Shown: positions 15,811 through 64,000 of the stretch, piece by piece | Position numbering within the stretch: position 1 is the first letter of the stretch | Layout: every line of letters begins with the position of its first letter | Source of the DNA: Schmidtea polychroa | Taxonomy: Eukaryota | Length of the DNA: 64,000 nt | Assembly: GCA_044892525.1 (NCBI GenBank) | Contig: CM097885.1 | Span: forward strand, 30,010,001 to 30,074,000 | Direction of reading: 5' to 3' | Translations under genes and position numbers: made by a program | The notes under the pieces: model-generated | Seen by the model: the letters and a program-made list of their open reading frames with translations, nothing else | Databases searched by the model: none | What the model was told of the DNA's origin: nothing

Positions 15811-15812
15811 AA

Positions 15813-33750: not shown

Positions 33751-35258
33751 ATGTCTCTAAGTAAACCATATTGGAAATGTGAAACCTGCCAGTGTCAAGT
33801 TAGAAAACATCATAAAGCAAGTCATGTTAAAACTAAAAAACATATACTTGGAATAAATACATCTAGACAAGATCCTAGTAGACAAGATCCTGGTAGACAA
33901 ATCTTTAAACTTTATTCCCCTAGAAGTCCTCCTAGAAATTCTCCTAGAAATTCTCCTAGAAATTCTCCTGGATTTATTTTTGAGAAACAAGGAGGAGACC
34001 TTCAATCTTCAAAAGTAACATCTTCAATCCAAAAACATTTTACTACTGAAAAATATCCAGGTGAAAGACATTTATTCAAACACAACTATACTGGACCAGG
34101 AACAAGATTGGATATTAGATTAGATGAAAATAATAATCCCAAACCTGGAGAAGAACCAATAAATAGAATTGATCAATCAGCTTTAAAACATGACATTGCA
34201 TACAATTCAGAAGATCTTAGAGATAGACATGTAGCAGATGTAAATTTAATTCATGATTTAAATAATATTGAAAATCCATCAACTCGAGAAAAGATTCAAA
34301 GAGCTTTAGTTAAATTAGCCATGAAAGGTAAAATCTTTTTAGGTGCAGGTCTACCAAGGATGGCAAAAGATGTTGCCAACAAAAAGATTATTGAACAAGC
34401 AGATATTGAGAATCACCCCGAGAAACACCCTGAGAATATATCCAAGACTAATTTACAAACCCCAACAGAATCAGAAATAAAATATGCCAAGGAATTACAC
34501 CATGAATTTAGAAAAAATAAAAAATATTTAAAAGTTCAAGTACATGAAAAAGATCAAACATGGTCTGCAGATTTAGTCTTTATCCCCAAATCATCAGACC
34601 CTGAAAAATATAAAATAATTTTAACAGTAATAGATTTATATACAAGATTTGCTTTTGCAAGATGTTTAGAAAATAAAACAGGATATTCCATTACAGAAGC
34701 ATTTGAAAATATATTTGAAGAATATCAAAGAATTCCAAAATATTTATGGTGTGATAAAGGAACAGAATTTTATAACAAAGTTTTTAAATGAAAATGATAT
34801 TAAATTATATTCAACAGAAAACGAAGGAAAAGCAGTCGTAGTTGAAAGATTAAATAGAACATTAAAAAATAAAATGTGGAAATATTTTACTGCTATTGGA
34901 AAACAAAAATGGAACAATGAATTGTTACAAAAGATTGTAAATGAATATAATAATGATGTACATAGTTCTATAAAATTAACACCTTTAAATGCTTCCTTGA
35001 ATCCTTTGGAACTCGTGAATCCTGAAATAGTTAAAGTGGTAAATGAAAAACCAAAATTTAAAATTGGTGACCGCGTAAGAATATTTAAATATAAAAATAA
35101 ATTTGAAAAAGGATTCACAGCAAAATGAACAAATGAAATTTTTATTATAAATAAAATACATTATACAACTCCAATAACATATAGCATCATTGATTTAAAT
35201 AATGAAAAAATATTAGGTAGATTTTATAATAATGAACTACAGAAAACAGATTTCTAAA
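33751..35258 (+). pseudogene. Zn-finger-PLA2-integrase fusion, copy 1 (11-bp deletion frameshift at ~34785 and TGG>TGA at 35126)
   Basis: CETC...H...H finger; HNYTGPGT and KHDIAY (parvovirus-type PLA2); WSADL, CDKGTEF, VVERLNRTLK (DDE); lesions seen by comparison with 59118-60524. Confidence 0.9.
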
Positions 35259-42469: not shown

Positions 42470-42995
42470 TTTATCACACTATAGTGAGAGGGTCTTGATG
42501 GTCCTGGGAATTTCTATACAAAAATCCGACTATCAATAAAAAAGTCAAGGATTATTCACACTATAGTGAGGGGGTCTCGATGGTCCTGGGATTTTCAATA
42601 CAAATAAAATTTTTTCTATACAAAAATCCGACTACCACTAAAAAAGCCAAGGATTATTCACACTATAGTGAGGGGGTCTCGATGGTCCTGGGATTTTCAA
42701 TACAAAAATCCTACTACCAATAAAAAAGCCAAGGATTTTTCAGACTATAGTGAGGAGGTCTCGATGGTCCTGAGAAATAGGTGGTCTACACTAAAAAAGC
42801 ATGGTAATTTAAGGTCTCGGGATATTTTCAATACAAAAAGCTGGTCTACACTAAAAAAGCATGGTAATTTAAGGTCTCAGGATATTTTCAATACAAATAG
42901 GTGGTCTACACTAAAAAAGCCAAGGATTTTTCAGACTATAGTGAGGTGAGTCTCCTTGGTCCTGAGAAATAGGTGGTCTACAGTAAAAAACGTGG
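42470..42995 (+). repeat. Subterminal modular ~50-100-bp repeats with palindromic CACTATAGTG cores (mirror at ~56975-58050 with more copies)
   Basis: cactatagtgagggggtctcgatggtcctgggattttcaatac and ctaaaaaagcatggtaatttaaggtctc modules. Confidence 0.9.
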
Positions 42996-43820
42996 TAAAT
43001 TTTTCAATTAAAGTAAATAATGGTCCTAAAAATTAAATTACAGTAAATAATGGTTCTAAAAATTAAAGTAAATTATGGTTCAAATTTTTCAATTAAAGTA
43101 AATAATGGTCCTAAAAATTTAATTAAGGTCCTAAAAATTAAATTAAAGTAAATTAAGGTTCTAAAAATTAAATTAAAGTAAATAATGGTTCTAAAAATTT
43201 AAATTACAGTAAATTATGGTTCTAAAATATTAAATTACAGTAAATTATGGCTCAAATTTTTGAATTACAGTAAATTATGGGTCTAAAAAATTAAATTACA
43301 GTAAATAATGGTCCAAATTTTTAAATTAAAGTAAATTATGGTCTAAATAAGTAAATTATGGTTCTAAAAATTAAATTATAGTAAATTATGGTTCTAAAAT
43401 ATTAAATTACAGTAAATTATGGCTCAAATTTTTGAATTACAGTAATTAATGGTTCTTAAAAATTAAATTAAAGTAAATAATGGTTCTAAAAATTTAAATT
43501 ACAGTAAATTATGGTCTAAAAATTAAATTAAAGTAAATTATGGTCAAACATTTTAAATTAAAGTAAATAATGGTCCAAATTTTTCCAATACAGTAAATTA
43601 TGGGTCTAAAAATTAAATTACAGTAAATAATGGTTCTAAAAATTAAATTAAAGTAAATTTAGGTTCTAAAAATTAAATTACAGTAAATTAAGGTCCAAAT
43701 TTTAAAATTAAGTAATCAATGGTAAAAAATTTTAAATAAGTAAATTAAAGTAATAATTTTTAAATTAAGTAATCAATGGTAAATAATTTTAAATAAGTAA
43801 ATTAAAGTAAGATTTTAAAA
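42996..43820 (+). repeat. AT-rich minisatellite built on AAATTA(A/C)AGTAAAT(T/A)ATGGTTCTAAA (mirror ~56230-56970)
   Basis: Many degenerate tandem copies. Confidence 0.9.
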
Positions 43821-44019
43821 TTTATTAACAAAAAGTTGAAGGTGTTTGAGAATTGAAATTTTTTAATGAAAATTTTTATGGAATAATTTTTTTAAGTAAT
43901 TTTTAATGGAAATTTTTATGAAATATTTTTCAATGATAATTTTAGATGGAAATTTTTAAGATAATTTTTAATGAAAATTTTTATGAAATATTTTTCAAAG
44001 ACAAATTTTAATAATAATT

Positions 44020-45420
44020 CAACAACAAACCAACAACTTAGTACCAACAACCAGTAACTTATGAACATGTATTAACAACCAGATACCTACAACTAGTTAC
44101 TAACAACCAGTTACCTGATACCAGATACCTACAACTAGATACCTACAACTAGTTACCTGATACCAACTACTAACAACCACCTACCCATTAACTAGCTACA
44201 ACCCGCTAACAACTAGCTACCACCTACCAAGTACTTACAACTAGATACCACGTACTAAATAACTCTCAAACAACCAAGTACCTACAACAAATTACCAGAT
44301 ACCAAGTACCTACAACTAGTTACTAACAACTAGTTACCTGATACTAAGTACCTACAACCACCTAACAAGTACTAACAGCCAAAAACAAGCAACCAACCAG
44401 GTACCAGATACCACCTACTAAGTACCAACAACCAACTAGCTACCAGATACCTACAACTAGATACTAACAACTAGATACCAAGTACCTACAACCACCTACC
44501 CATTAACTAGCTACCAAGTACTAACAACTAGGTCTCAAACAACTAAATACTAACAACCAGTTACCAACTACTAAGCATTAATTACCTACAACTAGTTACT
44601 AACAACTAGATACCAAGTACTTACAACCACCATCAACCAGGTACTAAGCATCATCAACTAACTACTAAGTACCTACAACCTACAACTAGATACTAACAAC
44701 CAGTTACCTGCTACCAAGTACTTACAACTAGTTACTAACAACCAACCAACTAGGTACTAGATACCAAGTACTTACAACCGACAACAACCAGTTACTAAGC
44801 ATTATTAACCAACTACTAAGTACCTACAACCTACAACTAGATACTAACAACCAGTTACCTGATACCAAATACTTACAACTAGATACCAAGTACTATCAAC
44901 CAAAAACAACCAACCAACTAGGTACTAGATACCAAGCACTCACAACCAACATCAACCAGGTACTAAGCATTATCAACCAACTAAATACTAAGTACTAACA
45001 ACCAACCAACCAGTTACCTGATACCAAGTACTTACAACTAGTTACTAACAACCAGATACCTACAACTAGTTACTAGATACCAAGTACTTACAACCGACAA
45101 CAACCAGTTACTAAGCATTATTAACCAACTACTAAGTACTAACAACTAACTACCACCTACCAAGTACTAACAATCAAAACAACCAAGTACTAACAACCAA
45201 CAACAACCAGCTAACAACTAACTACCACCTACCAAGTACCTACAACTAGTTACTAACAACTAGTTACCCATTAACTAGCTACAACCAACACTCAACTAGC
45301 TACCAACTACTAAGTACCTACAACCAACATCAACCAGGTACTAGATACCAAGTACTAACAACCAAGTAACTTACCTAGTAATAAGCACTGTCAACTAGGT
45401 ACCAAGCACTTACAAGCAGA
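44020..45420 (+). repeat. Strand-biased C/A-rich satellite built from ACTAACAACC / ACCTACAACTAG / TACCAAGT words (mirror ~54870-55985)
   Basis: G-poor low-complexity array; organisation differs between the arms. Confidence 0.9.
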
Positions 45421-45721
45421 TGACCACATGAAATTATTGGTTAAATATGAAAATAAGGGTTATAATTAGTTGTTAAGTAAATTATGGTGTAAAATTAAGA
45501 AATAAAGAATAATTAGGTAAATTAAAGTAATAATTTTTAAAAAAGTAAATTAAGGTTCAAATTTTAAATTAAATAAGTAAATTAAAGTAATAATTTTTAA
45601 ATAATTAATGTACTAAGTAAATTAAACTAAGATTTTTAAATTTATTATCAAAAGATTGAATAACCACCAACTTTTTTGAGAAATGTAATTTATAATGTAA
45701 ATTTAAATGGAAATTTAAATG

Positions 45722-45722
<1 letters not shown>

Positions 45723-45800
<78 letters not shown>
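45723..45800 (+). repeat. (AAT)n microsatellite (imperfect mirror at 54476-54568)
   Basis: Pure AAT run. Confidence 0.95.
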
Positions 45801-46213
45801 TCAACAGTTACCAACAATCGGTTACTGATTATTTTTTAACTAGGTGCTAACAAATACTTACACCATGATACCACGTACTAACTAACTCTCAAACAACCAG
45901 ATACTTACAACTAACTACTAAATATTCTTTATTGTATTTTATGAAATGCTTTTTAAATTAATTTTTTATCTATCTTCAAAAATATATTTAATTACAATCA
46001 TTAGAAAAACCTTTTCAAATTTAACAAAAATGTTGATTTTCATCAAAAAACCACAACTCATCACCACGTGGAATTCAAAATAATTTAAATGAAAGACTAA
46101 TGAATTCTAATTTACAAAACATTCTTCTTTTAATTGATAACTACTGACTTATTATTGCAAAGTAAAAATCGCATTCAATAAATACTTATTGTTGATCAGT
46201 TTTATTATATATA

Positions 46214-49078
46214 CTCTGAGTTTATCCGACAGGATGTTTTGACCCCCCTAAGGGTACAGGTCGTAAGGGTACTAGTCGTAAGGGTACTGGTCGTAAGGGT
46301 ACAGGTCGTAAGGGTACTGGTCGTAAAGGTACTAGTCGTAGGGGTATTGATCACTCTCAATCCCCACCTACCCATTAAGTAGTTACTATCAATCAGCTAA
46401 CAACTAGATACCATGTACTAACAACCACCATCAAAACCCATCGAGAAATTAACAAATATCAACCTACAACTAGATACATACAACCAGATACCTGCTACCA
46501 AGTACCAAGTACTAACAACCAACTACTTACAACCAACAACTATGTACTAACAAATTGATCTTTAAAAGCAAATACTCATCACTTGAAAAATTAGATGGAA
46601 AATTAATTGAACTCAAGGCATCAATAACTTGATAAAAATTGATTAAATTATTGTAAAAAATTTAAATTATTCGAAATAAATATCATAAAAATTTAATTAA
46701 TGGACAAGAAAAAATTCTAATCATCCAATAAATAAAAAAAATGCTGATCATTCAAGTTGAATCAACTAAGATAATAAATTAATAAGATAAGATCTAGTAG
46801 ATAATTGATTTAGATTGAATAAATTATTTGAAATAAAATTTATTTTAAGTATTTTTTTAAAAGTAATACATGTACTCAAATCTATTTACTAATTCCTCAA
46901 TATATTCAAAAAATCAGTATGAATTCATTAAAATTATCAAAGTCAGCAATCTACAATAAAAATAATTATCATTAAATTCCAAAAGAGACTAGATAACTAA
47001 TGATAACATCTAACAAACCAGTAAATTCATTTAAATAATTGGTATATTCAAGCGAATTCTCTAATAAAATCATCTAAAAAGCATCAAATTTCCCTGAAAT
47101 ATATCAATATTTAAAGATTGGTATCTTATCGATAAGTACTTGTTAAAGATCATATATTCACCTCGAACTAACAAGATTCCTTAAAATCCCTCAAATGACT
47201 ATATTTCTACCCTTAATTCGTATTATTACAAATATTTCACTAAAATCATCTAAAAAGCATCAAATTTCCCTGAAATAACTATATCTTTAAAGATTAGTAT
47301 TTTATCGATAAATATCCTTAAAAGGTTATATATTTACCTCTGACTAATAAGATTGCTTTAATTCCTATTATCACGAATATTTCCTTATAAAACATGTAAA
47401 ATCATTAACCCTAAAGAATTTATAAAATCTAATGACAAAACCGGTTATAATAAAATTTTTGTTAATCACTGTAAATTTTTGTAAATCACTGTACTCGAAA
47501 TTTAAAATATATATAACTGACTAGGTCCCATTAAAAGATTAAATTTATCCATTCAATAAAATATATTTCTTCAAATGATCATTTTACCGATATTCAACCG
47601 ATTTAATTACTAATTAAAATCAAGATTTCTTCCAATAAAGATCAATTTTATTTAGTTGTCGATGTTTTAAATCAATATTTCTAAACTTTTGTCGTTGTCC
47701 GTCTAAATAAAGATAAAAATAATTTAAAGCTGATATCAATCCCAATTATCTGTAAAGTTTTCATCGTCAAAACCAAGTAAATCGATCATTATCCCTACTT
47801 AATAAAACATTGTTCTAAAATAATTTACTGTGCATTAATCACAACCTAATAAAACGATATAATTATTATTGATTCATAACTGACTAATGTATTGCAATTT
47901 CCTTAAAAAACATTGATATTTTACCAACATCACCCTTAAAAAATCATATATTCCCATCGAAACCCTTCCCTCATTAAAAGCAACCGACTATATCTCCCTC
48001 ACAATAATATATTCCCATCTTAACCCATCTCACATTAAATCTAACCGACTATATCCCCTTAAAAGATCATATATTCCCATCTTAACCCATCCCTCATTAA
48101 ATTTAATAACCGACAATATCCCATCTTATCCGATCTCTCAGCAAATATTTCTACCCTTTTAAACATCTAACCGAATATATCCTTCAATTCTACCCACTTG
48201 AATCCTCCTTTAATTCAATTCAGTCTTAAAATCTTTAAAGAACTTCAAAAATATGACTTAATTGTTATAGACACCAAATATTCTTCCATTGAAATAATTT
48301 AGTAGCTATGTAGTAAGAGTTCACTAAAAGATCAAAAATCAATATTTTCTACAAATATTTACCATCAAATACTGGAGATGATATATATTGATTGATCATA
48401 ATTCTTCATCGATTCAACCAATCATTTTCAAGCAATAATAGCAAACTACAATCATTTTCAAGTAAGTTAACTGGTTTCTTAGCTTATGTTTTTTAAAGTT
48501 CATCAATGAGTAAATATTCTTAGAAAAATATTGAAAACATTATTTAGTCAAATACATTACAAAGTTATCATCAAAAATCACTTAATTATTAACCTAATTG
48601 TCAATGAAATTAATTTTTATTTAAAAACTATTCAATAAAATACAACTAATTATCAAGAAATTAATTAAATTTATCATAGAACTAACTTTAAATATTCATT
48701 CAATAAACATGAAATTCACAAAAAACGATAAAAATTCACAAGAATGATAGAAATTCACAAAAAACGATAAAAATTCACAAGAATGATAGAAATTCACAAG
48801 AATGATAAAAATCCACAAGAATAATAGAAATTCACAAGAATGATAGAAATTCATAAAAATGATAGAAATTCACAAAAAAGATAGAAATTTACTTGAATAA
48901 AACCATCAACTCTAAAAATTATCAATGAATGCCTTATACAAATTTGCCTAAATAATCATTCAAATAAAAACATTAAATACCTTTACAACTAATACCCTTG
49001 CGACATGTTGAATGTGAGTAGTACCCTTGTGAGCAATACCCATAGGGGGACAGAATATTTTGTCGGATAAACTCAGAG
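46214..49078. mobile_element. Non-autonomous TA-flanked TIR element (Tc1/mariner-like ends), 2865 bp, left-arm copy
   Basis: TA|CTCTGAGTTTATCCGACA ... TGTCGGATAAACTCAGAG|TA with imperfect extension to ~45 bp; internal 15-bp (AGGGTACTGGTCGTA) and ~20-bp repeats; no ORF. Confidence 0.75.
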
Positions 49079-49620
49079 TATATATTAATTAACTCATTTT
49101 TCATTGAATTAGTCAAATTATCATAAATTTCGATAAAAAATCTAAAGTGGTAAGCAATGTAAAGAGAAATATTCTTTAAACTTTGATAAAATTAACAATG
49201 AAGGTGGTAAGAATCTTCATTAAAGTGAGTAAATTACTCGATGATAAATTCAAATGGGTGAAAATAATTGGTAGAATAATTCATTAATGGAGGTAAATAA
49301 TGAGAAGTGGCATGGATAACATGAAGGTTGATAAGAATGGAAGTATATTAATTTATTTAAAATTATTTCATAAAATTCATAAATTTAATAAAAAAAAAAC
49401 TTTTAAGACAAATATTTGTGGGGAATAATTAATCAAAATCGGGGGGATATTAGTGATTAATTAATGGAAAATAGAGAATCGGGGAATATAAGTGAATAAT
49501 TAATGGAAATTCTAGGGAATACAAATGATTAAATAGTGGAAATCGGGGGAATATAAGTTATAATAATTAGTGGGGTATTGAGAATCGGTGGAATATAAGT
49601 GAGAAGGATATGTAATTTAA

Positions 49621-50663
49621 ACTATTTTATTACATAACAAGCCATGACTAGTTTATTGCATAACAAGCTGTGAACGGGATTTTACCAACATTTTACCTAG
49701 TATTGAATTTAATTTTTATTGTATTTTTAAATTGTATATATTTTCAATATCATTCTATTGTTTTATTCCAATAATAAGTTTAAAAAGTATATAATGATTA
49801 ATAAATTAATATCGTGTTAACATTTATTTGAGAATTTAAAAAACTTTACTTAAAATTTAGTGAAATATTTAATTTTGATTGTATTTTATAAGACATATAT
49901 TTGAGTATTAACTTATTTTGATTGAAGTATTATATTCAATATTATGATGATTTTTTTTTCTAAATTAAAATATTTTAGTGTAAAATAGTAAATTTAATAA
50001 TGAATAGAATACAATATTAAAGGACTTTTTAAAAAGAAAAATTACTTTCTATTACCTAATTCCATCATTAAGTTTAAGAAGTCTATAACTGTTAATAAAT
50101 CAATTTCTTATTCACATTTTCTTATAAAATTTATATTTTTAAATTTAGTGTAAAGAATTTAATTTTAATTGTATTTTATAAGTCATTTATTTGAATATTT
50201 ATCTTATTTTTATTGAAAGGAGTAATATAATTAATAATATGATAATTGTTTTTGAAATATTTAGTGTAGAATAATAAATTTATTAATAAATAATTATTAC
50301 AATATTAAAGGACTTATACAACAAAATTTTTGTCTTATTCCATAAAAAAGTTTTAAAGTATATAACTGGTAATAAATTAATTTCTTATTTAAATTTATTT
50401 AAAAAAGCTTTACTTATAAAATTTGTATTTTCTAAGATATATATTTGAATATTCAACTTATTTTGAATGAAAAGGGTAATATATATATATATTATTTTCT
50501 TTTATGATAATTGTTTTTGAAATACATAATGTAAATTAAAACATTTTAGTATTAATTAGTTATTATTTTAGAATTTATTTTTGTCAAAAATTTAAAAAAA
50601 ATAAGACCATTCACAGCTTGTTATGTAATAAACTAGTCACGGCTTGTTATGTAATAAACTAGT
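49621..50663. mobile_element. MITE-like unit at the palindrome axis with imperfect ~54-bp inverted ends and about three diverged ~280-bp internal repeats
   Basis: ACTA(T/G)TTTATTACATAACAAGCC(A/G)TG motif doubled at each end; internal repeats near 49860, 50145, 50420. Confidence 0.5.
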
Positions 50664-51205
50664 TTAAATTACATATCCTTCTCACTTATATTCCACCGAT
50701 TCTCAATACCCCACTAATTATTATAACTTATATTCCCCCGATTTCCACTATTTAATCATTTGTATTCCCTAGAATTTCCATTAATTATTCACTTATATTC
50801 CCCGATTCTCTATTTTCCATTAATTAATCACTAATATCCCCCCGATTTTGATTAATTATTCCCCACAAATATTTGTCTTAAAAGTTTTTTTTTTATTAAA
50901 TTTATGAATTTTATGAAATAATTTTAAATAAATTAATATACTTCCATTCTTATCAACCTTCATGTTATCCATGCCACTTCTCATTATTTACCTCCATTAA
51001 TGAATTATTCTACCAATTATTTTCACCCATTTGAATTTATCATCGAGTAATTTACTCACTTTAATGAAGATTCTTACCACCTTCATTGTTAATTTTATCA
51101 AAGTTTAAAGAATATTTCTCTTTACATTGCTTACCACTTTAGATTTTTTATCGAAATTTATGATAATTTGACTAATTCAATGAAAAATGAGTTAATTAAT
51201 ATATA

Positions 51206-54070
51206 CTCTGAGTTTATCCGACAAAATATTCTGTCCCCCTATGGGTATTGCTCACAAGGGTACTACTCACATTCAACATGTCGCAAGGGTATTAGTTGTA
51301 AAGGTATTTAATGTTTTTATTTGAATGATTATTTAGGCAAATTTGTATAAGGCATTCATTGATAATTTTTAGAGTTGATGGTTTTATTCAAGTAAATTTC
51401 TATCTTTTTTGTGAATTTCTATCATTTTTATGAATTTCTATCATTCTTGTGAATTTCTATTATTCTTGTGGATTTTTATCATTCTTGTGAATTTCTATCA
51501 TTCTTGTGAATTTTTATCGTTTTTTGTGAATTTCTATCATTCTTGTGAATTTTTATCGTTTTTTGTGAATTTCATGTTTATTGAATGAATATTTAAAGTT
51601 AGTTCTATGATAAATTTAATTAATTTCTTGATAATTAGTTGTATTTTATTGAATAGTTTTTAAATAAAAATTAATTTCATTGACAATTAGGTTAATAATT
51701 AAGTGATTTTTGATGATAACTTTGTAATGTATTTGACTAAATAATGTTTTCAATATTTTTCTAAGAATATTTACTCATTGATGAACTTTAAAAAACATAA
51801 GCTAAGAAACCAGTTAACTTACTTGAAAATGATTGTAGTTTGCTGTTATTGCTTGAAAATGATTGGTTGAATCGATGAAGAATTATGATCAATCAATATA
51901 TATCATCTCCAGTATTTGATGGTAAATATTTGTAGAAAATATTGATTTTTGATCTTTTAGTGAACTCTTACTACATAGCTACTAAATTATTTCAATGGAA
52001 GAATATTTGGTGTCTATAACAATTAAGTCATATTTTTGAAGTTCTTTAAAGATTTTAAGACTGAATTGAATTAAAGGAGGATTCAAGTGGGTAGAATTGA
52101 AGGATATATTCGGTTAGATGTTTAAAAGGGTAGAAATATTTGCTGAGAGATCGGATAAGATGGGATATTGTCGGTTATTAAATTTAATGAGGGATGGGTT
52201 AAGATGGGAATATATGATCTTTTAAGGGGATATAGTCGGTTAGATTTAATGTGAGATGGGTTAAGATGGGAATATATTATTGTGAGGGAGATATAGTCGG
52301 TTGCTTTTAATGAGGGAAGGGTTTCGATGGGAATATATGATTTTTTAAGGGTGATGTTGGTAAAATATCAATGTTTTTTAAGGAAATTGCAATACATTAG
52401 TCAGTTATGAATCAATAATAATTATATCGTTTTATTAGGTTGTGATTAATGCACAGTAAATTATTTTAGAACAATGTTTTATTAAGTAGGGATAATGATC
52501 GATTTACTTGGTTTTGACGATGAAAACTTTACAGATAATTGGGATTGATATCAGCTTTAAATTATTTTTATCTTTATTTAGACGGACAACGACAAAAGTT
52601 TAGAAATATTGATTTAAAACATCGACAACTAAATAAAATTGATCTTTATTGGAAGAAATCTTGATTTTAATTAGTAATTAAATCGGTTGAATATCGGTAA
52701 AATGATCATTTGAAGAAATATATTTTATTGAATGGATAAATTTAATCTTTTAATGGGACCTAGTCAGTTATATATATTTTAAATTTCGAGTACAGTGATT
52801 TACAAAAATTTACAGTGATTAACAAAAATTTTATTATAACCGGTTTTGTCATTAGATTTTATAAATTCTTTAGGGTTAATGATTTTACATGTTTTATAAG
52901 GAAATATTCGTGATAATAGGAATTAAAGCAATCTTATTAGTCAGAGGTAAATATATAACCTTTTAAGGATATTTATCGATAAAATACTAATCTTTAAAGA
53001 TATAGTTATTTCAGGGAAATTTGATGCTTTTTAGATGATTTTAGTGAAATATTTGTAATAATACGAATTAAGGGTAGAAATATAGTCATTTGAGGGATTT
53101 TAAGGAATCTTGTTAGTTCGAGGTGAATATATGATCTTTAACAAGTACTTATCGATAAGATACCAATCTTTAAATATTGATATATTTCAGGGAAATTTGA
53201 TGCTTTTTAGATGATTTTATTAGAGAATTCGCTTGAATATACCAATTATTTAAATGAATTTACTGGTTTGTTAGATGTTATCATTAGTTATCTAGTCTCT
53301 TTTGGAATTTAATGATAATTATTTTTATTGTAGATTGCTGACTTTGATAATTTTAATGAATTCATACTGATTTTTTGAATATATTGAGGAATTAGTAAAT
53401 AGATTTGAGTACATGTATTACTTTTAAAAAAATACTTAAAATAAATTTTATTTCAAATAATTTATTCAATCTAAATCAATTATCTACTAGATCTTATCTT
53501 ATTAATTTATTATCTTAGTTGATTCAACTTGAATGATCAGCATTTTTTTTATTTATTGGATGATTAGAATTTTTTCTTGTCCATTAATTAAATTTTTATG
53601 ATATTTATTTCGAATAATTTAAATTTTTTACAATAATTTAATCAATTTTTATCAAGTTATTGATGCCTTGAGTTCAATTAATTTTCCATCTAATTTTTCA
53701 AGTGATGAGTATTTGCTTTTAAAGATCAATTTGTTAGTACATAGTTGTTGGTTGTAAGTAGTTGGTTGTTAGTACTTGGTACTTGGTAGCAGGTATCTGG
53801 TTGTATGTATCTAGTTGTAGGTTGATATTTGTTAATTTCTCGATGGGTTTTGATGGTGGTTGTTAGTACATGGTATCTAGTTGTTAGCTGATTGATAGTA
53901 ACTACTTAATGGGTAGGTGGGGATTGAGAGTGATCAATACCCCTACGACTAGTACCTTTACGACCAGTACCCTTACGACCTGTACCCTTACGACCAGTAC
54001 CCTTACGACCAGTACCCTTACGACCTGTACCCTTAGGGGGTTCAAAACATCCTGTCGGATAAACTCAGAG
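51206..54070. mobile_element. Non-autonomous TA-flanked TIR element, 2865 bp, right-arm mirror copy
   Basis: Same length as 46214-49078 and its near-identical reverse complement. Confidence 0.75.
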
Positions 54071-54475
54071 TATATATAATAAAACTGATCAACAATAAGT
54101 ATTTATTGAATGCGATTTTTACATTGCGATAATAAGTTATCAATTAAAAGAAGAATGTTTTGTAAATTAGAATTCATTAGTCTTTCATTTAAATTATTTT
54201 GAATTTCACGTGGTGATGAGTTGTGGTTTTTTTGATGAAAATCAACATTTTTTGTTAAATTTGAAAAGGTTTTTCTACTGATTGTAATTAAAATTATTAA
54301 TTTTAAAAAGCATTTCATAAAATACAATAAAAAATATTTAGTTGATTGTAAGTAGTTAGTTGTAAGTATCTGGTTGTTTGAGAGTTAGTACGTGGTATCA
54401 CGTTGAAAGTATTTGGTACTTATTTGTCAGCACCTAGTTAAAAATACATGATCGTTGTTGGAATCTGATTGTTGA

Positions 54476-54535
<60 letters not shown>

Positions 54536-57500
54536 ATTATTATTATTATAATTATTATTATTATTATTCCATTAAAATTTCCATTAAAATTTTCATTATA
54601 AATTACATTTCTCAAAAAAGTTGGTGGTTATTCAATCTTTTGATAATAAATTTAAAAATCTTACTTTAGCTTTAATTTAAAATTTGAACCATTGGATACT
54701 TAATTTTAAATTTTGAACCATTGTTTTCTTTAATTTAAAATTTTTAACTTTAATTTACTTATCCTTAATTTACCTAATTACTCTTTATTTCTTAATTTTA
54801 CACCATAATTTACTTAACAACTAATTATAACCCTTATTTTCATATTTAACCAATAATTTCATGTGGTCATCTGGTTGTAAGTGTTTGGTATCTAGTTGAC
54901 AGTGCTTTGTACTTGTTATCTAGTTGTTAGTACTTGGTTGATAATGCTTAGTTATTGGTTGTATGTACTTGGTATCTAGTTGTTAGTAACTAGTTGTAGG
55001 TAATTAATGCTTAGTACCTGGTATCTAGTTGTTAGCTGGTTGTTAGTACTTAGTTGTTGGTTGTAAGTAGTAGGTATCTGGTAGTTAGTTGTTAGCTGGT
55101 TGTTGGTTGTTAGTACTTGGTAGCTAGTTGTTAGCTGGTAGTTAGTACTTAGTATCTAGTACCTAGTTGGTTGGTTGTTGGTACTTGGTATCTGGTTGAT
55201 AGTTGGTTGTTAGTACTTGGTAGGTGGTTGGTTGTAGGTACTTAGTAGTTGGTTAATAATGCTTAGTACCTGGTTATTGTTGGTTGTGAGTACTTGGTAT
55301 CTAGTTGTTAGTTTTTTGCTGGTTGTTGGTACTTAGTAGGTGGTTGTAGGTACTTAGTATCAGGTAACTGGTTGTTAGCTGGTTGTAACTAGTTAATAGG
55401 TAGGTGGTTGTTGGTAATTAATGCTTAGTACCTGGTTGATGTTGGTTGTTAGTACTTGGTAGGTGGTTGGTTGTTAGTACTTAGTAGTTGGTTAATAATG
55501 CTTAGTACCTGGTTGTTGTTGGTTGTGAGTACTTGGTATCTAGTTGTTAGTTTTTAGCTGGTTGTTGGTACTTAGTAGGTGGTTGTAGGTACTTAGTATC
55601 AGGTAACTGGTTGTTAGCTGGTTGTAACTAGTTAATAGGTAGGTGGTTGTAAGTACTTGGTAGGTTGTAAGTAGTTGGTTGATTTTTTAGATTTTGATAA
55701 GAAGATATTGTATTTGATGAAGAATATTTTGTATTTAATTGCAATTATTTTTATGTGTTGTTAGTTGATTGTTGGTACTTGGTATCTGGTTGATAGTTGG
55801 TTGTTAGTACTTGGTAGGTGGTTGGTTGTTAGTACTTAGTAGTTGGTTAATAATGCTTAGTACCTAGTTGTTGTTGGTTGTTAGTACTTAGTATCTAGTT
55901 GTTAGTATCTAGTTGTAGGTATCTGGTTGTAACTACATGTTCGTAAGTTACTGGTTGTTGGTACTAAGTTGTTAGTTTGTTGTTGAATTATTAATAAAAT
56001 TTGTCTTTGAAAAATATTTCATTAAAATTTTCATTAAAAATTATCTTAAAAATTTCCATCTAAAATTATCATTGAAAAATATTTCATAAAAATTTCCATT
56101 AAAAATTACTTAAAAAAATATTCCATAAAAATTTCCATTAAAAATTACCATTGAAAATTTTCATTAAAAAAATTTCAATTCTCAAACACCTTCTATTATT
56201 TCAACTTTTTGTTAATAAATTTAAAAATCTTACTTTAATTTACATATTACATTACTTATTTAAATATTATTACTTTAATTTAATTTTTTTACCATTGATT
56301 ACTTAATTTTTAAATTTGGACCATAATTTACTTTAATTTAATTTTTTAGAACCATAATTTACTGTAATTTAATTTTTTTAGAACCATAATTTACTTTAAT
56401 TTAATTTTTAGAACCATAATTTACTTTAATTTAATTTTTTAGAACCATTATTTACTGTAATTTGAAAAATTTGAGCCATTATTTACTTTAATTGAAAAAT
56501 CTGAGCATATTAATTACTTTAATTCGAAAATATGAACCTTAATTTAATTTTTTAGGACCATAATTAACTTTAATTTAATTTTTTAGGACCATTATTTACT
56601 TTAATTTAAAATTTTGAACCTTAATTTAGTTATTTGAGCCCATTCATTACTTTAATTGAAAAATCTAAGCCCATAATTTACTTTAATTCAAAAATTTGGA
56701 CCATAATTTACTGTAATTTAAAAATCTTAGTCCATAATTTACTGTAATTCAATTTTTTTTAGACCATAATTTACTGTAATATAATTTTTTAGAACCATAA
56801 TTTACTGTAATTTAATTTTTTAGGACCATAATTACCTTATTTGAAAAATTTGAACCATAATTTACTTTAATTGAAAAATTTGGACCATAATTTACTGTAA
56901 TTTAAAAATCTTAGTCCATAATTTACTGTAATTCAATTTTTAGAACCATAATTTACTTTAATTTTAAAAAATTTACCACGTTTTTTAGTGTAGACCACAT
57001 ATTTCTCAGGACCAAGGAGACCCACCTTAATTTAATTCGAAAAATCCATGCTTTTTTATTGATAGTCGGATTTTTGTATTGAAAATATCCTGAGACCTTA
57101 AATTACCATGCTTTTTTAGTGAGACCGCCTTTTTGTATTGAAAATATCATGAGACCTTAAATTACCATGCTTTTTTATTGATAGTCGGATTTTTGTATTG
57201 AAAATATCATGAGACCTTAAATTACCATGCTTTTTTATTGAAGACCAGCTTTTGTATTGAAAATATCCTAAGACCTTAAATTACCATGCTTTTTTAGTGA
57301 AGACCAGTTTTTGTATTGAAAATATCCTGAGACCTTAAATTACCATGCTTTTTTATTGATAGTCGGATTTTTGTATTGAAAATATCATGAGACCTTAAAT
57401 TACCATGCTTTTTTAGTGTAGACCAGCTTTTTGTATTGAAAATATCCTGAGACCTTAAATTACCACGTTTTTTTAGTGTAGACCACCTATTTCTCAGGAC

Positions 57501-58185
57501 CAAGGAGACTCACCTCACTATAGTCTGAAAAATCCTTGGCTTTTTTAGTGGTAGTCGGATTTTTGTATTGAAAATATCCTGAGACCTTAAATTACCACGT
57601 TTTTTTTTAGTGTAGACCACCTATTTCTCAGGACCAAGGAGACTCACCTCACTATAGTCTGAAAAATCCTTGGCTCTTTTAGTGATAGTAGGATTTTTGT
57701 ATAGAAAAAAATTTTTCGTATTGAAAATCCCAGGACCATCGAGACCCCCTCACTATAGTGTGAATAATCCTTGGCTTTTTTAGTGGTAGTCGGATTTTTG
57801 TATAGAAAAAAATTTTTTGTATTGAAAATCCCAGGACCATCGAGACCTCCTCACTATAGTGTGAATAATCCTTGGCTTTTTTAGTGGTAGTCGGATTTTT
57901 GTATAGAAAAAATTTTATTTGTATTGAAAATCCCAGGACCATCGAGACCCCCTCACTATAGTGTGAATAATCCTTGACTTTTTTATTGATAGTAGGATTT
58001 TTGTATAGAAATTCCCAGGACCATCAAGACCCTCTCACTATAGTGTGATAAAAAAAAATTTGGACCAAAAATCCCTGAAAGCAAAAAAATGAGTTGGGAA
58101 CAATTGCGTAATAAAAATTTGGGAACAAACCCCCCCCCCCGGGGGGGGGGGGGTAATTGTTCCCGTAGGCCACTATCTACCTACT

Positions 58186-59088
58186 TATGGTGAATTAACA
58201 GGTTGGATTCCTGATGTTAATAAAGGGGATTTAGATAAAGATGGTTTAGATATAAATTATGGTTACCATAAAAGAGCTGAACTTTATAAATCTAAAAGAT
58301 TTGAAGGTTATTTTGAATTAAAACACTTATTTGGATTCCTTCAAAATTATAACCGTGTACTTCATAATGTTTTTATAGAATTCATCTGTAATAGACTAGA
58401 AGGTGATAAAAGATTGTTCTATGGAGCTGCAGATACAAAAGCTAAATTAAAATTATCAACACTTGAATTGCATATACCTGAATGGACATTAAACCCACAT
58501 TCTGAAATCAAACTCCTTGAAAGATTAAATTCCAACAAGTCTATAAATGTAAATTATTTAAATAGAATCTGTAGTGAATTTAGTATGACAGAGGGTTCAA
58601 CATATTCTATAAAGGTAACAAATTTAGCATACCGACCAAGATATATCTTGATTGGATTCAAAGACACAGATTCATCTTTCCAAAAAAATAACAACCTATT
58701 TATTCAAAAGATTGAAAATGATAATTTAAAAACAATCCAAATTCAATTAAATAGTTCTTATTATCCAATAAATAGAATGGAATTTAATATTGAAAATAAT
58801 GAAAACATATTCCCATATCTAAATTATATTGAAACATGTTATGATTTCAAAGTTGAACCGCAATTAAGTTTAGAAGATTTCAAAATTTTATATTCTATAT
58901 TTTGTATAAATGTTTCAGACCAAGATGATCGCCTAGCCATAAATAATGTTGATGTTACACTTCATGTAACAAAGGATTCTAATTTTAAAGCTAAAGTATA
59001 TACATTAATATTAGAAGAAAAGAAAATAGAAATGAAATTATATGGCGGAAAGATTTCAATTATTGAAAATGTTAGGGGAGATTCTTGA
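58186..59088 (+). pseudogene. Major capsid protein, copy 2, 5'-truncated by the foldback element
   Basis: Resumes immediately after CTACT with YGELTGWIPD (YGESTGWIPD, about residue 129 of copy 1); open to the stop at 59088. Confidence 0.9.
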
Positions 59089-59117
59089 TATAATCCCTGA
59101 TATTTTAACATTTTAAA

Positions 59118-60524
59118 ATGTCTTTAAATAAACCCTATTGGAGATGCGAAACTTGTAATTGTCAAGTTACAAAACACCATAAAGCAAGTCATCTTAAAAC
59201 TAAAAAACATACGAGAGTTGATATTACAGGAGGTGATCTACAATCTTCAAAAACAACATCTTCAATATTAAAACCTTTTACTACAGAAAAATATCTAGGT
59301 GACAGACATTTATTTAAACACAATTATACTGGGCCAGGAACAAGATTAGATATTAGATTAGATGAAAATAATAATCCTAAACAAGGAGAAGAACCAATAA
59401 ATAGAATCGACCAAGCAGCTTTAAAACATGATATTGCTTACAATTCAACAAATCTTAGAGATAGACATGTTGCAGATGTGAATTTAATACATGATTTAAA
59501 TAATATACAAAATCCATCAACCCAAGAAAAGATTCAAAGAGCTCTAGTTAAATTAGCAATGAAAGGTAAGATTTTCATAGGCTTAGGACACAGTCCGATC
59601 ACCATGGGTGCCAGACTTCCTAGGAAAGCAAAAGATGTTGCTAATAAAAAGATTATCGAACAAGCAGAGATTGAAAGATCCCTCGAGAGTACAGCTAAGA
59701 CTAGTTTACAAACCCCAACAGAATCAGAAATAAAATATGCCAACGAATTACACCATGAATTTAGAAAAAATAAAAAATATTTAAAAGTTCAAGTACATGA
59801 AAAAGATCAAACATGGTCTGCTGACTTAGTCTTTATGCCAACCAAATCATCAGACCCTGAAAAATATAAAATAATTTTAACTATTATAGATTTATATACA
59901 AGATTTGCTTTTGCAAGATGTTTAGAAAATAAAACAGGATATTCTATTACAGAAGCATTTGAAAATATATTTGAACAACATCAAAGAATTCCAAAATATT
60001 TATGGTGTGATAAAGGAACAGAATTTTATAACAAAGTTTTTACAAAGTTTTTAAATGAAAATGATATTAAATTATATTCAACAGAAAACGAAGGAAAAGC
60101 AGTCGTAGTTGAAAGATTAAATAGAACATTAAAAAATAAAATGTGGAAATATTTTACTGCTATTGGAAAACAAAAATGGAACAATGAATTGTTACAAATG
60201 ATTGTAAATGAATATAATAATGATGTACATAGTTCTATAAAATTAACACCTTTAAATGCTTCCATGAAGCCTGAAACCATTAAAGTGGTAAATATTGAAA
60301 ATGATGTTATTGAAAAACCAAAGTTTAAAATTGGTGACCGAGTAAGAATATTTAAATATAAAAATAAATTTGAAAAAGGATTCACAGCAAAATGGACAAA
60401 TGAAATTTTTATTATAAATAAAATACATTATACAACTCCAATAACATATAGCATCATTGATTTAAATAATGAAAAAATATTAGGTAGATTTTATAATAAT
60501 GAACTACAGAAAACAGATTTTTAA
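59118..60524 (+). CDS. Zn-finger-PLA2-integrase fusion protein, copy 2, intact 468 aa
   Basis: CETC...H...H; ITGG; HNYTGPGT...KHDIAY...ADVNL; WSADL / CDKGTEF / VVERLNRTLK; KFKIGDRVRI; no chromodomain. Confidence 0.92.
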   Translation: MSLNKPYWRCETCNCQVTKHHKASHLKTKKHTRVDITGGDLQSSKTTSSILKPFTTEKYLGDRHLFKHNYTGPGTRLDIRLDENNNPKQGEEPINRIDQAALKHDIAYNSTNLRDRHVADVNLIHDLNNIQNPSTQEKIQRALVKLAMKGKIFIGLGHSPITMGARLPRKAKDVANKKIIEQAEIERSLESTAKTSLQTPTESEIKYANELHHEFRKNKKYLKVQVHEKDQTWSADLVFMPTKSSDPEKYKIILTIIDLYTRFAFARCLENKTGYSITEAFENIFEQHQRIPKYLWCDKGTEFYNKVFTKFLNENDIKLYSTENEGKAVVVERLNRTLKNKMWKYFTAIGKQKWNNELLQMIVNEYNNDVHSSIKLTPLNASMKPETIKVVNIENDVIEKPKFKIGDRVRIFKYKNKFEKGFTAKWTNEIFIINKIHYTTPITYSIIDLNNEKILGRFYNNELQKTDF

Positions 60525-60535
60525 GTCGACAAGCC

Positions 60536-61329
60536 CTAAAACAAACTTTTCCATATTTCAGCTTCTTCTCTATCCAAATAAATATAATTATATTTTTCTT
60601 TCCAATGATTATCAACAAACATATCAAACATATTCTTATCAGGTTCAACATTTGAAAATAAATCATTATAAATCATATTCTTATCACGGCGATCTAATTT
60701 AAAAAATATAAAACAATTGGAATTATTTCTTATTGAATTTTTATCTAAAGCATAATAAGTTTGAGATATATAAATAACATTACAATTATTATGTCTTCCT
60801 CTTGTAAAGTAACTCTTTTGAATCTCTTGATTTTTCATGTTGACAACATCATCAAATATAACTAGATTCTTTTTATCTTTAGGAAGTAAATCACAATGTA
60901 AAACATCTTCAGGTTTATTAGAGAATAAAACTTGAATTGCCTCCTGCCCCCTTCTTCACAAATATAATCATTTTTATTACTAATATCTGATTCTAAAATA
61001 TTTTCCTTATACCAATCAACCATATCACAAGGTTGAAAAACTTCTTCAGGACATCTATGTTGATTTTTAAAAATATCAATTATTGCTTTTTTAGTTAATT
61101 TATTTTCAAATCCACATTTCAAAAGTTGTAATTCTGGTTGATTTATGGTTGTAGAATAAAAGATTAAATTATTATAATCTAAAAAATCATCTTCAAGTAA
61201 CATTCTCAAAACAAGTACATTCTTTCCACATCCAGAAGAACCAACAATTAATAATCTAAAATTATCAGGAAATACTTTATTATTAAATTTACTCTTATAT
61301 CTATTTAAAATTGGTTTCCAAATATCCAT
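60536..61329 (-). pseudogene. Packaging ATPase, copy 2, frameshift near 60945
   Basis: Two ORF pieces matching 35259-36050. Confidence 0.9.
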
Positions 61330-61344
61330 TTTGTTTATTATAAA

Positions 61345-61913
61345 ATGACAACTGAAGAATCTTTGCAAGAATTAATAAATTCAAATAAAAATAAATCAGT
61401 AGTAATTGATGGTAAAAAATATTTTATTGGAAAACATGTAAAAGAACAAGTTAAAGAACGTATTAGAGAAGGTGGCATTCTTCCATTAGCTGCTTTAATA
61501 CCTGCAATCATTGCTGCTTTATCAGGTGCTGCTGGAATAGCTGGAGGAATTGCAACTACAGTTCAAAAAGCTAAAGAATCTCAAAAGACAGACCTTGAAA
61601 AAGAAAAACTACAAACTGAAATCGATTCAATGAAGAAGGTAGGGCAAGCTAAATGGGAAGTGTCCGTTGGAAAGGGTCTCTATCTTAATCCATATGAGGG
61701 AGTCGGCAAAAGTCTCAGGGCAAAGGTCTCTATCTTGATCCTTATAAAGGTAGAGGTTTAAATGATTTTTTAAAAAATCGAATTTCTACATCTGAATCTT
61801 TATCTTCAAAAGATAAAGAAGATTTAAAAAAAATATGTAAATCTTTAAAGAATGGATGCCTTTGTAAAACTAAAAATGGTAAAGGATTATACTTGAAGCC
61901 CTTCGAACTATGA
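61345..61913 (+). pseudogene. pX-like protein, copy 2, frameshift near 61720
   Basis: REGGILPLAALIPAIIAAL; three GKGLYLxP motifs, ending GKGLYLKPFEL-stop. Confidence 0.7.
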
Positions 61914-61935
61914 TACCATTTTTGATACCATTAAA

Positions 61936-62796
61936 ATGGTATATGAAGAAAGATTAGCACTTTTAAAAAAATTACAATCAGAACAAGATAAATATAATAA
62001 AAAAGATACAACTCAACATGCTGAATCTATAATATTAAATGAGGTAATAACACAACAACAGGGGCCAACAATTAAAGCTATAAAAGAGTTGGAAGATTTC
62101 AATGAACAAGCAAAATTTAAAGAGTTAGAAGATAAAAAACAAAAAATAAAAGAACTAGAGTGGCAGGATAAAGAAAAAGAATCCAGTGAAAACCATCCTG
62201 AAAGAAATCAAAGAAAACGCAGAAGAATTTCTAATGTGGAAGAAGAAGAAATGTTTTTAAAAACAAAACCTCTTAAAGTTGATCCTAAAATTAGAGATGA
62301 TTTACCTCCTTCAATTAGACCCACATTTAATACTAATACTGAAGGATATCAAATAATAACAATTAATAAACAAAACTTTACTTTATATTCAAATTCAGAA
62401 AATAAATCACGTATTCATTCACAAAATGTTTATAATAATGAATATTTAGACTTTGAATTTACAGATGATTTTTATAGATTACTTTGTGGATATTCTTCAG
62501 ATGATGTTGAAGAAATTAAAAAATATTTAAATTTAATAAGATTAATAAGAGCTAGTTCTAAAGCAAAATATATTCAAGATTTAAAGAATTATTTAAATAA
62601 AAATGAAAAGGGTTATGTTGTTACAGAGAGAGAGGGATTGGATCCCATCAATCTTTTTATTGAATTAAGAAAACTATTAGCTGCAAGGAAAGCAGGACAT
62701 AATAATTTAGATTCTGATATTTTAAAGATTTCTAAAGATTTGTTAAAACAAGGAATAATTTCAAAAGATAAATTTAATAAGTATACGAAGTTATAA
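61936..62796 (+). CDS. Conserved Polinton protein of unknown function, copy 2
   Basis: 286 aa; DPINLFIELRKLLAARKAGHNN...LLKQGII; NLS-like RKRRR. Confidence 0.7.
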   Translation: MVYEERLALLKKLQSEQDKYNKKDTTQHAESIILNEVITQQQGPTIKAIKELEDFNEQAKFKELEDKKQKIKELEWQDKEKESSENHPERNQRKRRRISNVEEEEMFLKTKPLKVDPKIRDDLPPSIRPTFNTNTEGYQIITINKQNFTLYSNSENKSRIHSQNVYNNEYLDFEFTDDFYRLLCGYSSDDVEEIKKYLNLIRLIRASSKAKYIQDLKNYLNKNEKGYVVTEREGLDPINLFIELRKLLAARKAGHNNLDSDILKISKDLLKQGIISKDKFNKYTKL

Positions 62797-62818
62797 ATAC
62801 GAAGTTTTAAAATACAAA

Positions 62819-63283
62819 ATGACTCCTTCAATATTAGATTTTTTAAAAACATTTGGAATAAATACAAAAACAAATTTCAATTTAAAAGATTATGCAAATT
62901 ATTTAAATTTAAAAATTAAAATATTAATGAATGATGAATTATCAAGTCTGGAGAGTCCCCTGAATATAATAATCAATTATCAAAATTCAAATGAAAAAGG
63001 ATCTCATTGGGTTTGTATATATAAGAAATCTATCTACTTTGATTCTTTTGGGATTAAACCTACTAAAGAAGTTGAAGATTATCTCTTGAGGGGTTCTCCG
63101 ATTGATTCCCCAAATGGTTATACTTTTAACTCTTTACAAGTTCAACCTTTGAATACTAAAATATGTGGTATTTTAAGTTTATATGTTTTGTATAGATTGA
63201 ATAAGGGAGAGGGAAAGGGGCATACGCAGGATTTTGAATCTATAATTCAAGAAATTTATAATGATCTAGAATCTCTACTATAA
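62819..63283 (+). CDS. Adenain-like (C5) cysteine protease, intact
   Basis: Catalytic H (GSHWVC), D (YFDSFG), oxyanion Q (QVQ), C (KICG). Confidence 0.9.
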   Translation: MTPSILDFLKTFGINTKTNFNLKDYANYLNLKIKILMNDELSSLESPLNIIINYQNSNEKGSHWVCIYKKSIYFDSFGIKPTKEVEDYLLRGSPIDSPNGYTFNSLQVQPLNTKICGILSLYVLYRLNKGEGKGHTQDFESIIQEIYNDLESLL

Positions 63284-63331
63284 GGATTTTTACTATAAGG
63301 ATTTTTACTATATGAATTTACTACTAAAGAA

Positions 63332-64000
63332 ATGGAGCTTCACAACCCTCCGGAAGATAATTTAAAAAAAATGGTAAACATAATGTCAGATAAATATTCA
63401 AGAACTTTATCTATAAATTCAAAAGAATCAGACTTTACTATAAACTTTCAAGATTCAATTAAATTAGATCAAAATTTAAATTATGAATTGGGGCTATTAT
63501 GGTTTTGTGCTTATAATACTATTTTTAATATAACTAAAGATAATAATAAATTTACTATTCAAACTCGTGATGGACATAAACCAGAAATTATAACAATAGA
63601 ACCTGGGGCATATGAGATAAAAGATTTAAATGATATACTTTCTAAAAAAACAAATGAAGGTATTAAAATTAAAATGGATATACCAACTTCAAAATGTGTA
63701 ATGACTTTGAAGAATATAAAAATTAGTTTTTAGATAATTGTTTCTTTCACACAGTTTTAGGATTTAAACCTATGGATATAACAATAAAAGAAGATAAAAT
63801 AATAACATCAGAAAATATTATAAAAATAATAAATACAAACACAATAAATATTCATTGTGATTGTATAACAGGTTCTTATAATAATGGTAAACAAACAAAT
63901 GTTTTATATTCCTTTCCCTCAAACACAGTTCCAATGGGATATAAAATAGTTGAAAGAATGAATCCTCCAAATTATTTACCTTTATGTAGAAAATATATAA
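63332..64000 (+). pseudogene. Minor capsid (penton) protein, copy 2, frameshift near 63730, runs off the window
   Basis: Homologous to 38002-38738; INIHCDCITGSYNNG...GYKIVERMNPPNYLP in the shifted frame. Confidence 0.85.

Follow-up and report, generated by a model that had tools for sequence, protein, structure and literature searches.

Results and discussion

Two copies of a Polinton-type cassette in the genome of Schmidtea polychroa

The DNA analysed here (hereafter the window) is a stretch of 64,000 nucleotides from the flatworm Schmidtea polychroa (assembly GCA_044892525.1, contig CM097885.1, positions 30,010,001 to 30,074,000). It carries two copies of a gene cassette with the same order of genes, i.e. 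capsid, a gene fusing a phospholipase A2 (PLA2) to an integrase, A32 ATPase (on the other strand), pX gene, cysteine protease and penton (table 1). Pfam recognizes the capsid (PF21738, E = 1.5e-27) and the A32 ATPase (PF04665, E = 3e-9), and the penton is retrieved by tblastn from locus L002 (E = 4e-26). The fusion gene thus sits in a cassette of the Polinton/Maverick type (adintovirus, Eupolintoviridae).

Table 1. Features of the window, with positions counted from its first nucleotide. The arrow marks a candidate cut.
Feature	Position	Strand	Remarks
Fusion gene, copy 1	33751..35254	+	88% identical; frame change near 34775-34790
Double-jelly-roll major capsid gene, copy 2	58186..59088	+	lacks the first ~128 codons, at foldback edge
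PLA2-integrase fusion ORF, copy 2	59118..60524	+	468 aa, intact; zinc-finger leader, PLA2, linker, rve integrase
C2H2-type zinc-finger leader, accessory	59145..59210	+	C10, C13, H25, H31; variable among homologues
Candidate cleavage site 1, G38-G39↓D40	59229..59237	+	conserved; pLDDT<50 at aa 33-39
Predicted released PLA2 unit	59235..59585	+	aa 40-156, ~13.3 kDa; Ca-loop YTGPG, H104/D105/Y108/D120
Candidate cleavage site 2, G155-L156↓G157	59580..59588	+	conserved; pLDDT<50 at aa 156-168
PLA2-integrase linker	59589..59732	+	in frame; no A6+ run in window's lineage
rve integrase, catalytic core and C-terminal domain	59733..60521	+	D236/D298/E332; no chromodomain
A32-like packaging ATPase, copy 2	60536..61329	-	broken
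pX-bearing core-protein gene, copy 2	61345..62796	+	in pieces; REGG/KEGG site, repeated GxG motifs
Clan-CE cysteine protease, copy 2	62819..63283	+	intact (H63, D75, Q109, C116)
Penton-like gene, copy 2	63332..63999	+	broken, runs off window

In copy 1 the capsid gene is complete (32436-33722), the ATPase (35259-36050) and penton-like (38002-38643) genes are intact, the pX gene forms one ORF (36066-37421) and the protease gene (about 37478-37972) contains a stop. The reading frame of its fusion gene (33751-34791, 346 aa) breaks after the second Asp of the integrase triad and before its Glu. An intact DDE integrase had been predicted for both copies from the sequence alone (hereafter the original prediction); this is correct for copy 2, and copy 1 is frameshifted at about 34775-34790. 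The same prediction placed the pX-like segment on a gene of its own, where we indeed find it, with a PF05829 match (E = 4e-4) that is below the cut-off. The copy 1 pX gene has seven GG/GxG motifs and is joined to a downstream domain of ~280 aa in one ORF; judging by these motifs, its product is a candidate for a second protease precursor.

When the window was searched with two pPolB queries (tblastn), no pPolB gene was found; copy 2 leaves the window, a hAT-like element interrupts copy 1, and pPolB is present in relatives with the same fusion (L001, L028, L032, L039 and L042). Polinton element ends, with terminal inverted repeats and a 6-bp target duplication, were likewise not found for either fragment within the window. 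As both cassettes are damaged and no pPolB was found in the window, the window's copy is not an active virus, and its fusion gene belongs to a damaged element. The region 58200-63900 is covered in all 30 bins by four sequencing runs from four studies, and a contig of run X5 spans 59544-60187 (site 2 and the start of the integrase) with three gap letters and no net frame change. Two independent ENA proteins, P0001 (91% identical) and P0124, likewise join PLA2 and integrase in frame. The fusion is therefore not an artefact of assembly, nor is it unique. At the copy 2 breaks in the ATPase, pX gene and penton, contigs from other runs deviate from the window's sequence.

Domains and predicted structure of the fusion protein

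The single ORF with a zinc finger, a PLA2 and an integrase is confirmed in copy 2, where both the PLA2 (PF08398, Phospholip_A2_4, aa 64-145, E = 2.4e-9) and the rve integrase (PF00665, aa 227-320, E = 5.8e-12) score above the Pfam cut-off. The predicted Ca-loop and catalytic HD..Y motif are both in the sequence (Y70-T-G-P-G74 and H104-D105-x-x-Y108), and are accompanied by a distal Asp (D120). Among the 116 homologues that align over the PLA2, out of the best 120 of 1068, Y108 and D120 are kept in all 116, H104 in 114, D105 in 113 and G72 in 107. The PLA2 parts of the two copies differ by 26 synonymous and 13 non-synonymous codons out of 120. The integrase triad (D236, D298 and E332) is complete; in an alignment of 117 rows both aspartates are invariant and the glutamate occurs in at least 90%. 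The absence of a chromodomain was also predicted correctly, as PF00385 finds no match in the 468-aa protein, with which the ORF ends, and the domain is likewise missing, by motif, in 18 of 25 intact in-frame junctions of relatives.

The N-terminal zinc finger can be seen as C10-x2-C13...H25...H31, modelled by AlphaFold2 as a strand pair and a helix, and has no Pfam match at E ≤ 1. It is not a constant of the family: among 99 scored homologues, a few of which may lack it only because they are incomplete at the N-terminus, 12 have a C2H2 leader, 13 a C4 ribbon, one a half finger and 73 no finger.

Domain parsing by AlphaFold2, proposed along with the original prediction, gave a model of the 468-aa protein (built on the 117-row alignment) with a mean pLDDT of 86 and values below 50 only at aa 1-3, 33-39 and 156-168, the latter two being the two glycine sites. 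The integrase part (aa 206-468) matches the integrase of the prototype foamy virus with a Z score of 21.8. The match of aa 62-161 to a rice secreted PLA2 is middling (Z 6.9, rmsd 4.4, 88 residues), a Z range that the program used, VIA-align, calls possibly a common arrangement, so that the PLA2 assignment rests mainly on sequence motifs and Pfam. Integrase matches fill the Foldseek lists obtained with the full model, and no PLA2 is among the matches listed; a single-sequence model of the PLA2 unit (pLDDT 37) was left out. The hallmarks of a parvovirus-type PLA2, i.e. a YxGPG Ca-loop, HDxxY, a distal Asp and a helical fold, are found in the window's protein. A profile of 44 PLA2 units has AAV VP1 as its first match (E = 4e-4), with the Ca-loop and HDxxY aligned to the VP1-unique PLA2 (PF08398) of the parvovirus. 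That parvoviral PLA2 stays on the capsid protein, whereas the PLA2 in the window is flanked by candidate protease sites.

The fusion in sequence databases and literature

Whether the fusion had already been described was left open by the original prediction. It is, in fact, routine in sequence data, which by the terms of that prediction takes away its novelty: 105 of the best 120 of 1068 homologues have both PF00665 and PF08398, some of them with an added chromodomain or DUF5679 leader, and named coral and sea spider proteins are included. It is also already catalogued, as the accessible part of the supplement of Buck et al. 2024 (PMC11071296) labels genes of Adinto15303 and Adinto6405, which have the same single-ORF PLA2-rve architecture as the window, 'PLA2-Integrase'; the label stands on two among the 59 'PLA2' matches listed there (media-3.zip). 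Close relatives of the window's protein from uAdinto11140 and uAdinto15034, labelled merely 'Integrase' in the same material, also have its zinc-finger leader and GGDLQSSK site, and are preceded in the file by a capsid-like protein. The adintovirus integrase of Buck et al. is defined with a C-terminal chromodomain, unlike the integrase in the window.

The entries of Buck et al. are, in the material available, labels only, with no model of cleavage or packaging. The genes for which the accessible text predicts -1 slippery sites are Penton and Hexon-Adenain and do not include PLA2-integrase; the searched text of the supplement has no match to 'frameshift'. More generally, we found no discussion of a PLA2-integrase fusion, or of a frameshift at its junction, in the open Polinton/adintovirus literature, namely in the accessible parts of PMC8502044, PMC3671162, PMC5803895, PMC11296320, PMC4642659, PMC7805220, PMC12220804, PMC11071296, PMC12567637, PMC11131425, 10.64898/2026.07.28.741253, 10.64898/2026.06.19.733378 and 10.64898/2026.10.13.758929; an earlier mention is possible in Repbase, subscription papers, some supplements or figures, which lay outside this search. 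What we add to the catalogued fusion is a conserved cleavage frame around the PLA2 and, in relatives, a -1 junction with an A-run between PLA2 and integrase, which appears to be undescribed.

Candidate cleavage sites flanking the PLA2

The 468-aa protein contains only three GG/GxG motifs, i.e. the Ca-loop and two candidate sites that bracket the PLA2 at low-confidence borders of the model. Both sites are conserved among the 116 homologues: at site 1, G38 is kept in 96 and G39 in 81 (with 18 gaps each) and D40 in 94; at site 2, K151 and G155 are each kept in 115 and G157 in 95. The glycine motifs quoted in the original prediction (ITGG and KQGG at site 1, IFIGLG and IFLGAG at site 2) are all in the sequence. 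They had been read as sites for adenain, whose strict substrate rule is (M/I/L)xGG↓x or (M/I/L)xGx↓G. Only ITGG out of the four fits this rule, since P4 is K in KQGG of copy 1 and F in both GxG sites, and we have rejected the rule as a yardstick. P4 among 75 homologues is mostly Y (22), K (17), H (8) or S (7) at site 1, and K in 46 at site 2. A better guide is the mavirus protease MVP, reported in the accessible text of Born et al. 2018 (PMC6048507) to cut GG↓X and GX↓G; as a motif match, this rule fits all four sites. The profile of the element's protease family matches ASFV pS273R (E = 1.5e-6) and adenain (E = 6e-5). The idea of a polyprotein thus gains support from conserved glycine motifs that bracket the PLA2 and fit the mavirus rule, though not from the adenain consensus. 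We regard the two sites as candidate protease cleavage sites that would free the PLA2 and the integrase, with predicted products of 4.5 kDa (leader), 13.3 kDa (PLA2) and 36.8 kDa (integrase).

Alternatively, the chain may stay uncleaved and the glycine motifs may be structural hinges, with the PLA2 tethered to the integrase and acting, e.g. at the nuclear envelope or in egress. Besides the three sites that miss the strict adenain rule and the variable P4 of site 1, the model speaks for this reading and counter to cleavage, as the last PLA2 helix runs to aa 155 and G155/G157 could be its structural cap. However, a varied P4 is also tolerated at the pX site of the element family (V 8, K 6, F 3 and R 2 of 26 pattern matches, including a few spurious ones), which we take to be the homologue of an adenovirus cleavage site. 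Moreover, in the standalone paralogues P0305, P0306 (both 72-73% identical) and P0156, GG-D closes a basic leader and the protein stops naturally at site 2, and GG↓X or GX↓G is enough for the mavirus protease according to the text available (PMC6048507). We therefore consider a permanently tethered PLA2 very unlikely and retain cleavage as the preferred reading.

The junction between PLA2 and integrase in relatives

As protein databases can reveal in-frame fusions only, we fetched the DNA of the junction with integrase patterns, from 10 viral loci and the best 80 of 216 metagenome loci. Of these 90 loci, 17 without a PLA2 match, two with a distant PLA2 and one with an incomplete PLA2 were left out; the remaining 70 and the two window copies make up 72 junctions. 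Ranking the loci by their tblastn E-value introduces a bias towards intact integrases and, if there is any effect on the frame, towards in-frame junctions. Other routes were less productive: a single-protein scan of viral contigs found no relative, against 10 from the alignment-based search, a fixed-pattern scan for the integrase start yielded no stretch, and a PLA2 pattern scan yielded 16 stretches, with an integrase nearby only in L102 (the same contig as L002).

The integrase lies in the -1 frame relative to the PLA2 at 33 junctions, in frame at 28, in the +1 frame at nine and in frame behind a stop at two. Site 2 lies just upstream of the A-run and -1 junction, and a run of at least six A follows it at all 33 of the -1 junctions (A6-A10), 4/28 in-frame, 8/9 +1 and 2/2 stop junctions (Fisher 3e-13 for -1 versus in-frame). 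The association persists after clustering at 90% (23/23 -1 versus 2/21 in-frame) and at 80% identity (14/14 versus 0/15). In the -1 loci the PLA2 frame stops 4-27 residues past site 2. The -1 junctions are not a sign of decay, since the integrase is intact in 30 of the 31 -1 loci not cut by the contig end, and so are all 50 neighbouring core genes of -1 loci, over 45.6 kb with 39 runs of A6+; the corresponding figures for neighbour genes are 51/57 at in-frame, 10/13 at +1 and 0/4 at stop junctions. The first Lys-Lys pair after site 2 is encoded as AAA-AAA in 30 of 35 shifted loci, compared with 12 of 133 pairs in the integrase body (16/19 versus 7/74 after clustering), an excess from which we conclude that the A-run is selected as nucleotides.

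A -1 integrase might conceivably be reached by splicing or re-initiation rather than recoding, and the public gene model P0113 from a sea spider indeed skips the junction. Yet an intron-like pattern (GT...pyrimidine-AG) occurs in none of the 33 -1 linkers, 31 of which are merely 39-81 nt long, and splicing is hence rejected; re-initiation would require a usable Met, which is missing from the integrase frame before the first catalytic Asp in 31 of the 33 loci. We hold this explanation to be highly improbable.

The A-run might instead be a mutation hotspot at the DNA level (a contingency tract), so that integrase is made by the in-frame copies alone and the -1 and +1 copies, lacking it, are passengers that depend on help in trans; the excess of -1 would then reflect a deletion bias or assembly error. 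The length of the run does vary, from 6 to 12, near-identical loci can differ in frame (L050/L071 and L051/L053), one multi-copy family (the P0114 cluster) has both in-frame and other-frame products with variable Lys runs, and an RNA stimulator was not found after the A-run. Against this, the integrase is in frame at only four of the 47 junctions with an A-run, the intact -1 integrases belong to lineages down to 70% identity and below, and no shift is seen at the 39 A6+ runs in neighbour genes or at 24 such runs in the same integrase ORFs, all of which makes a plain hotspot quite unlikely.

These patterns point to programmed recoding at the -1 A-run junctions, similar to that of Gag-Pol but working without a downstream RNA structure. 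As in classical viral -1 frameshifting, an in-phase X XXY YYZ heptamer is found within the usable interval in 28 of the 33 -1 loci. The stimulatory stem-loop or pseudoknot expected 5-9 nt downstream is, in contrast, not seen: the 60 nt after the A-run show no more folding stability than shuffled sequences (mean z 0.06, n=32, in a fold model without pseudoknots), and the MFE z is weaker there than in control windows. A strict -1 mechanism also leaves the nine +1 junctions unexplained, as most +1 integrases are intact (7/8). Given the missing RNA structure, the +1 cases and the variable run length, polymerase slippage, which occurs in potyviruses and filoviruses, or ribosome sliding fits as well as a tandem tRNA slip. 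Sliding of ribosomes on A-runs has been reported (PMC4363877, text available in part), and we lean only slightly towards ribosomal over transcriptional recoding.

At 70% identity the -1 state falls into three clusters, 29 of the 33 loci being in one of them, which indicates few independent origins; 11 clusters are purely in-frame. A quick tree of 86 integrases (fragments below 160 aa left out, one row poorly filled), which gives no direction of change, requires at least seven changes between the shifted and in-frame states. The window's clade in this tree, with 20 rows, is mostly in-frame and includes one -1 locus (L012); the window's own lineage is a constitutive in-frame form.

It is also conceivable that the fusion is an incidental joining of neighbouring genes, that cleavage merely restores two independent proteins and that the PLA2 is not the integrase's carrier into the particle. 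The PLA2 cassette is certainly mobile, being fused to an integrase in only 24 of the best 150 representatives and standalone or joined to other ORFs in the others; catalogued elements include PLA2X, PLA2X-Adenain and Adenain-PLA2 forms, and some split forms (L003, L081 and AdintoBK012049) have an integrase start of their own. However, 31 of the 33 -1 integrases have no own start before the first catalytic Asp, so that their expression depends on the PLA2 frame, and the link persists over the state changes on the tree. An incidental fusion is, in our opinion, unlikely. In the 16 loci of at least 7 kb with such a junction, no PLA2 other than that of the junction was found.

A possible role of the fusion in integrase delivery

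We consider it probable that the fusion protein is a virion precursor cut by the element's own protease, delivering an entry PLA2 and an integrase, and that the family toggles between constitutive fusion and recoding. Leader, PLA2 and integrase would be made as one chain and packed together into the Polinton/adintovirus particle; the clan-CE protease would cut GG↓D and Gx↓G during maturation; the freed Ca-dependent PLA2 of ~13 kDa would breach the endosomal membrane and the freed integrase of ~37 kDa would travel with the genome. Packaging of the PLA2 and its aid to entry are suggested by analogy to parvoviruses, and a parvovirus-like entry role of PLA2 has been proposed for Polintons before (PMC4642659, accessible part). 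The link between PLA2 and integrase would exist in two interchangeable states. The constitutive in-frame state, as in the window, would yield PLA2 and integrase 1:1. In the recoded state most ribosomes would stop a few residues past the PLA2 and a minority would enter the -1 integrase at the A-run, giving much PLA2 and little PLA2-integrase, like retroviral Gag and Gag-Pol.

In the Gag/Gag-Pol system of retroviruses and LTR retrotransposons, an abundant virion protein lies upstream, the integrase follows downstream in the -1 frame or in frame, and the protease releases it. The Polinton case differs in that the element is a dsDNA one, the carrier is a lipase and the A-run has no detectable downstream stem or pseudoknot-like stability. 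The more general proposition, to which we give about an even chance, is that in a large group of animal Polintons the integrase enters the capsid attached to an entry phospholipase, as Pol is to Gag, with the PLA2:integrase ratio set by programmed recoding on a bare A-run without an RNA stimulator, and with repeated switching to and from constitutive fusion.

A closer parallel in some respects is mavirus, where native virions contain the integrase MV02 and two fragments of the predicted hydrolase MV13 (PMC6048507, accessible text). The likeness extends to a clan-CE protease with the GG↓X and GX↓G rule and to an integrase and a cleaved hydrolase in the virion. In mavirus, however, these are products of separate genes, the hydrolase is an alpha/beta hydrolase rather than a PLA2, and what was shown by experiment there is deduced for the window. 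The adintovirus PLA2X, as far as described in the accessible part of Starrett et al. 2021 (PMC8502044), shares with the window's protein a parvovirus-type PLA2, a preceding Gly-rich site and a KxKxGxG end. PLA2X is joined to pX, whereas the PLA2 in the window is joined to an integrase, with pX encoded by another gene.

According to the available part of a recent report (10.64898/2026.06.19.733378), no Maverick-Polinton virion has been observed. A cleavable PLA2-integrase precursor would offer a concrete route by which integrase could reach a new cell, and from it the sizes of two virion proteins can be predicted. The -1 junction further means that, among elements whose annotation lists a short 'PLA2X' and an integrase that is truncated or broken, many are probably intact, with consequences for estimates of how many elements are active. 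Should recoding be confirmed, the A-run would be a compact natural signal working without RNA structure in animal cells, and the integrating dsDNA virus would use a retrovirus-style strategy of expression and packaging.

Other observations

In further homologues (P0161, P0162, P0164, P0165 and P0168) it is a long, unrelated C-terminal ORF that is fused to this PLA2 cassette; one of these ORFs has tail-fibre-like repeats. Contigs of ~3.3 kb from IMG/VR (L092-L100 and L103-L106) encode no integrase but a PLA2 that shares the HxPGHNFTGPGT motif, and are possibly small genomes of the ssDNA type.

Next to copy 2 the window contains a non-coding foldback of ~15.8 kb (42336-58185) with ~7-kb arms full of tandem repeats, whose innermost 3540 nt are 100% complementary around an AT-rich spacer of 929 nt. 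Both ends start with AGTAGG, a Polinton-like terminus, and continue with a C-run/G-run palindrome; no 6-bp duplication is shared by the flanks, and on the right the foldback directly adjoins codon ~129 of the copy 2 capsid gene. A second Polinton-like element, in a more advanced state of decay, has left remains at about 3900-20100; these are mixed with fragments of RT/GIY-YIG retroelements and include a C-terminal piece of an integrase at 15315-15809 (minus strand). An ORF of 501 aa at 22031-23536 has Arg/Ser-rich and 18-bp tandem repeats as well as acidic blocks, and no confident Pfam match. Directly after copy 1 lies a fragment of a hAT-type transposon (39690-41972; PF05699, E = 3.8e-9).
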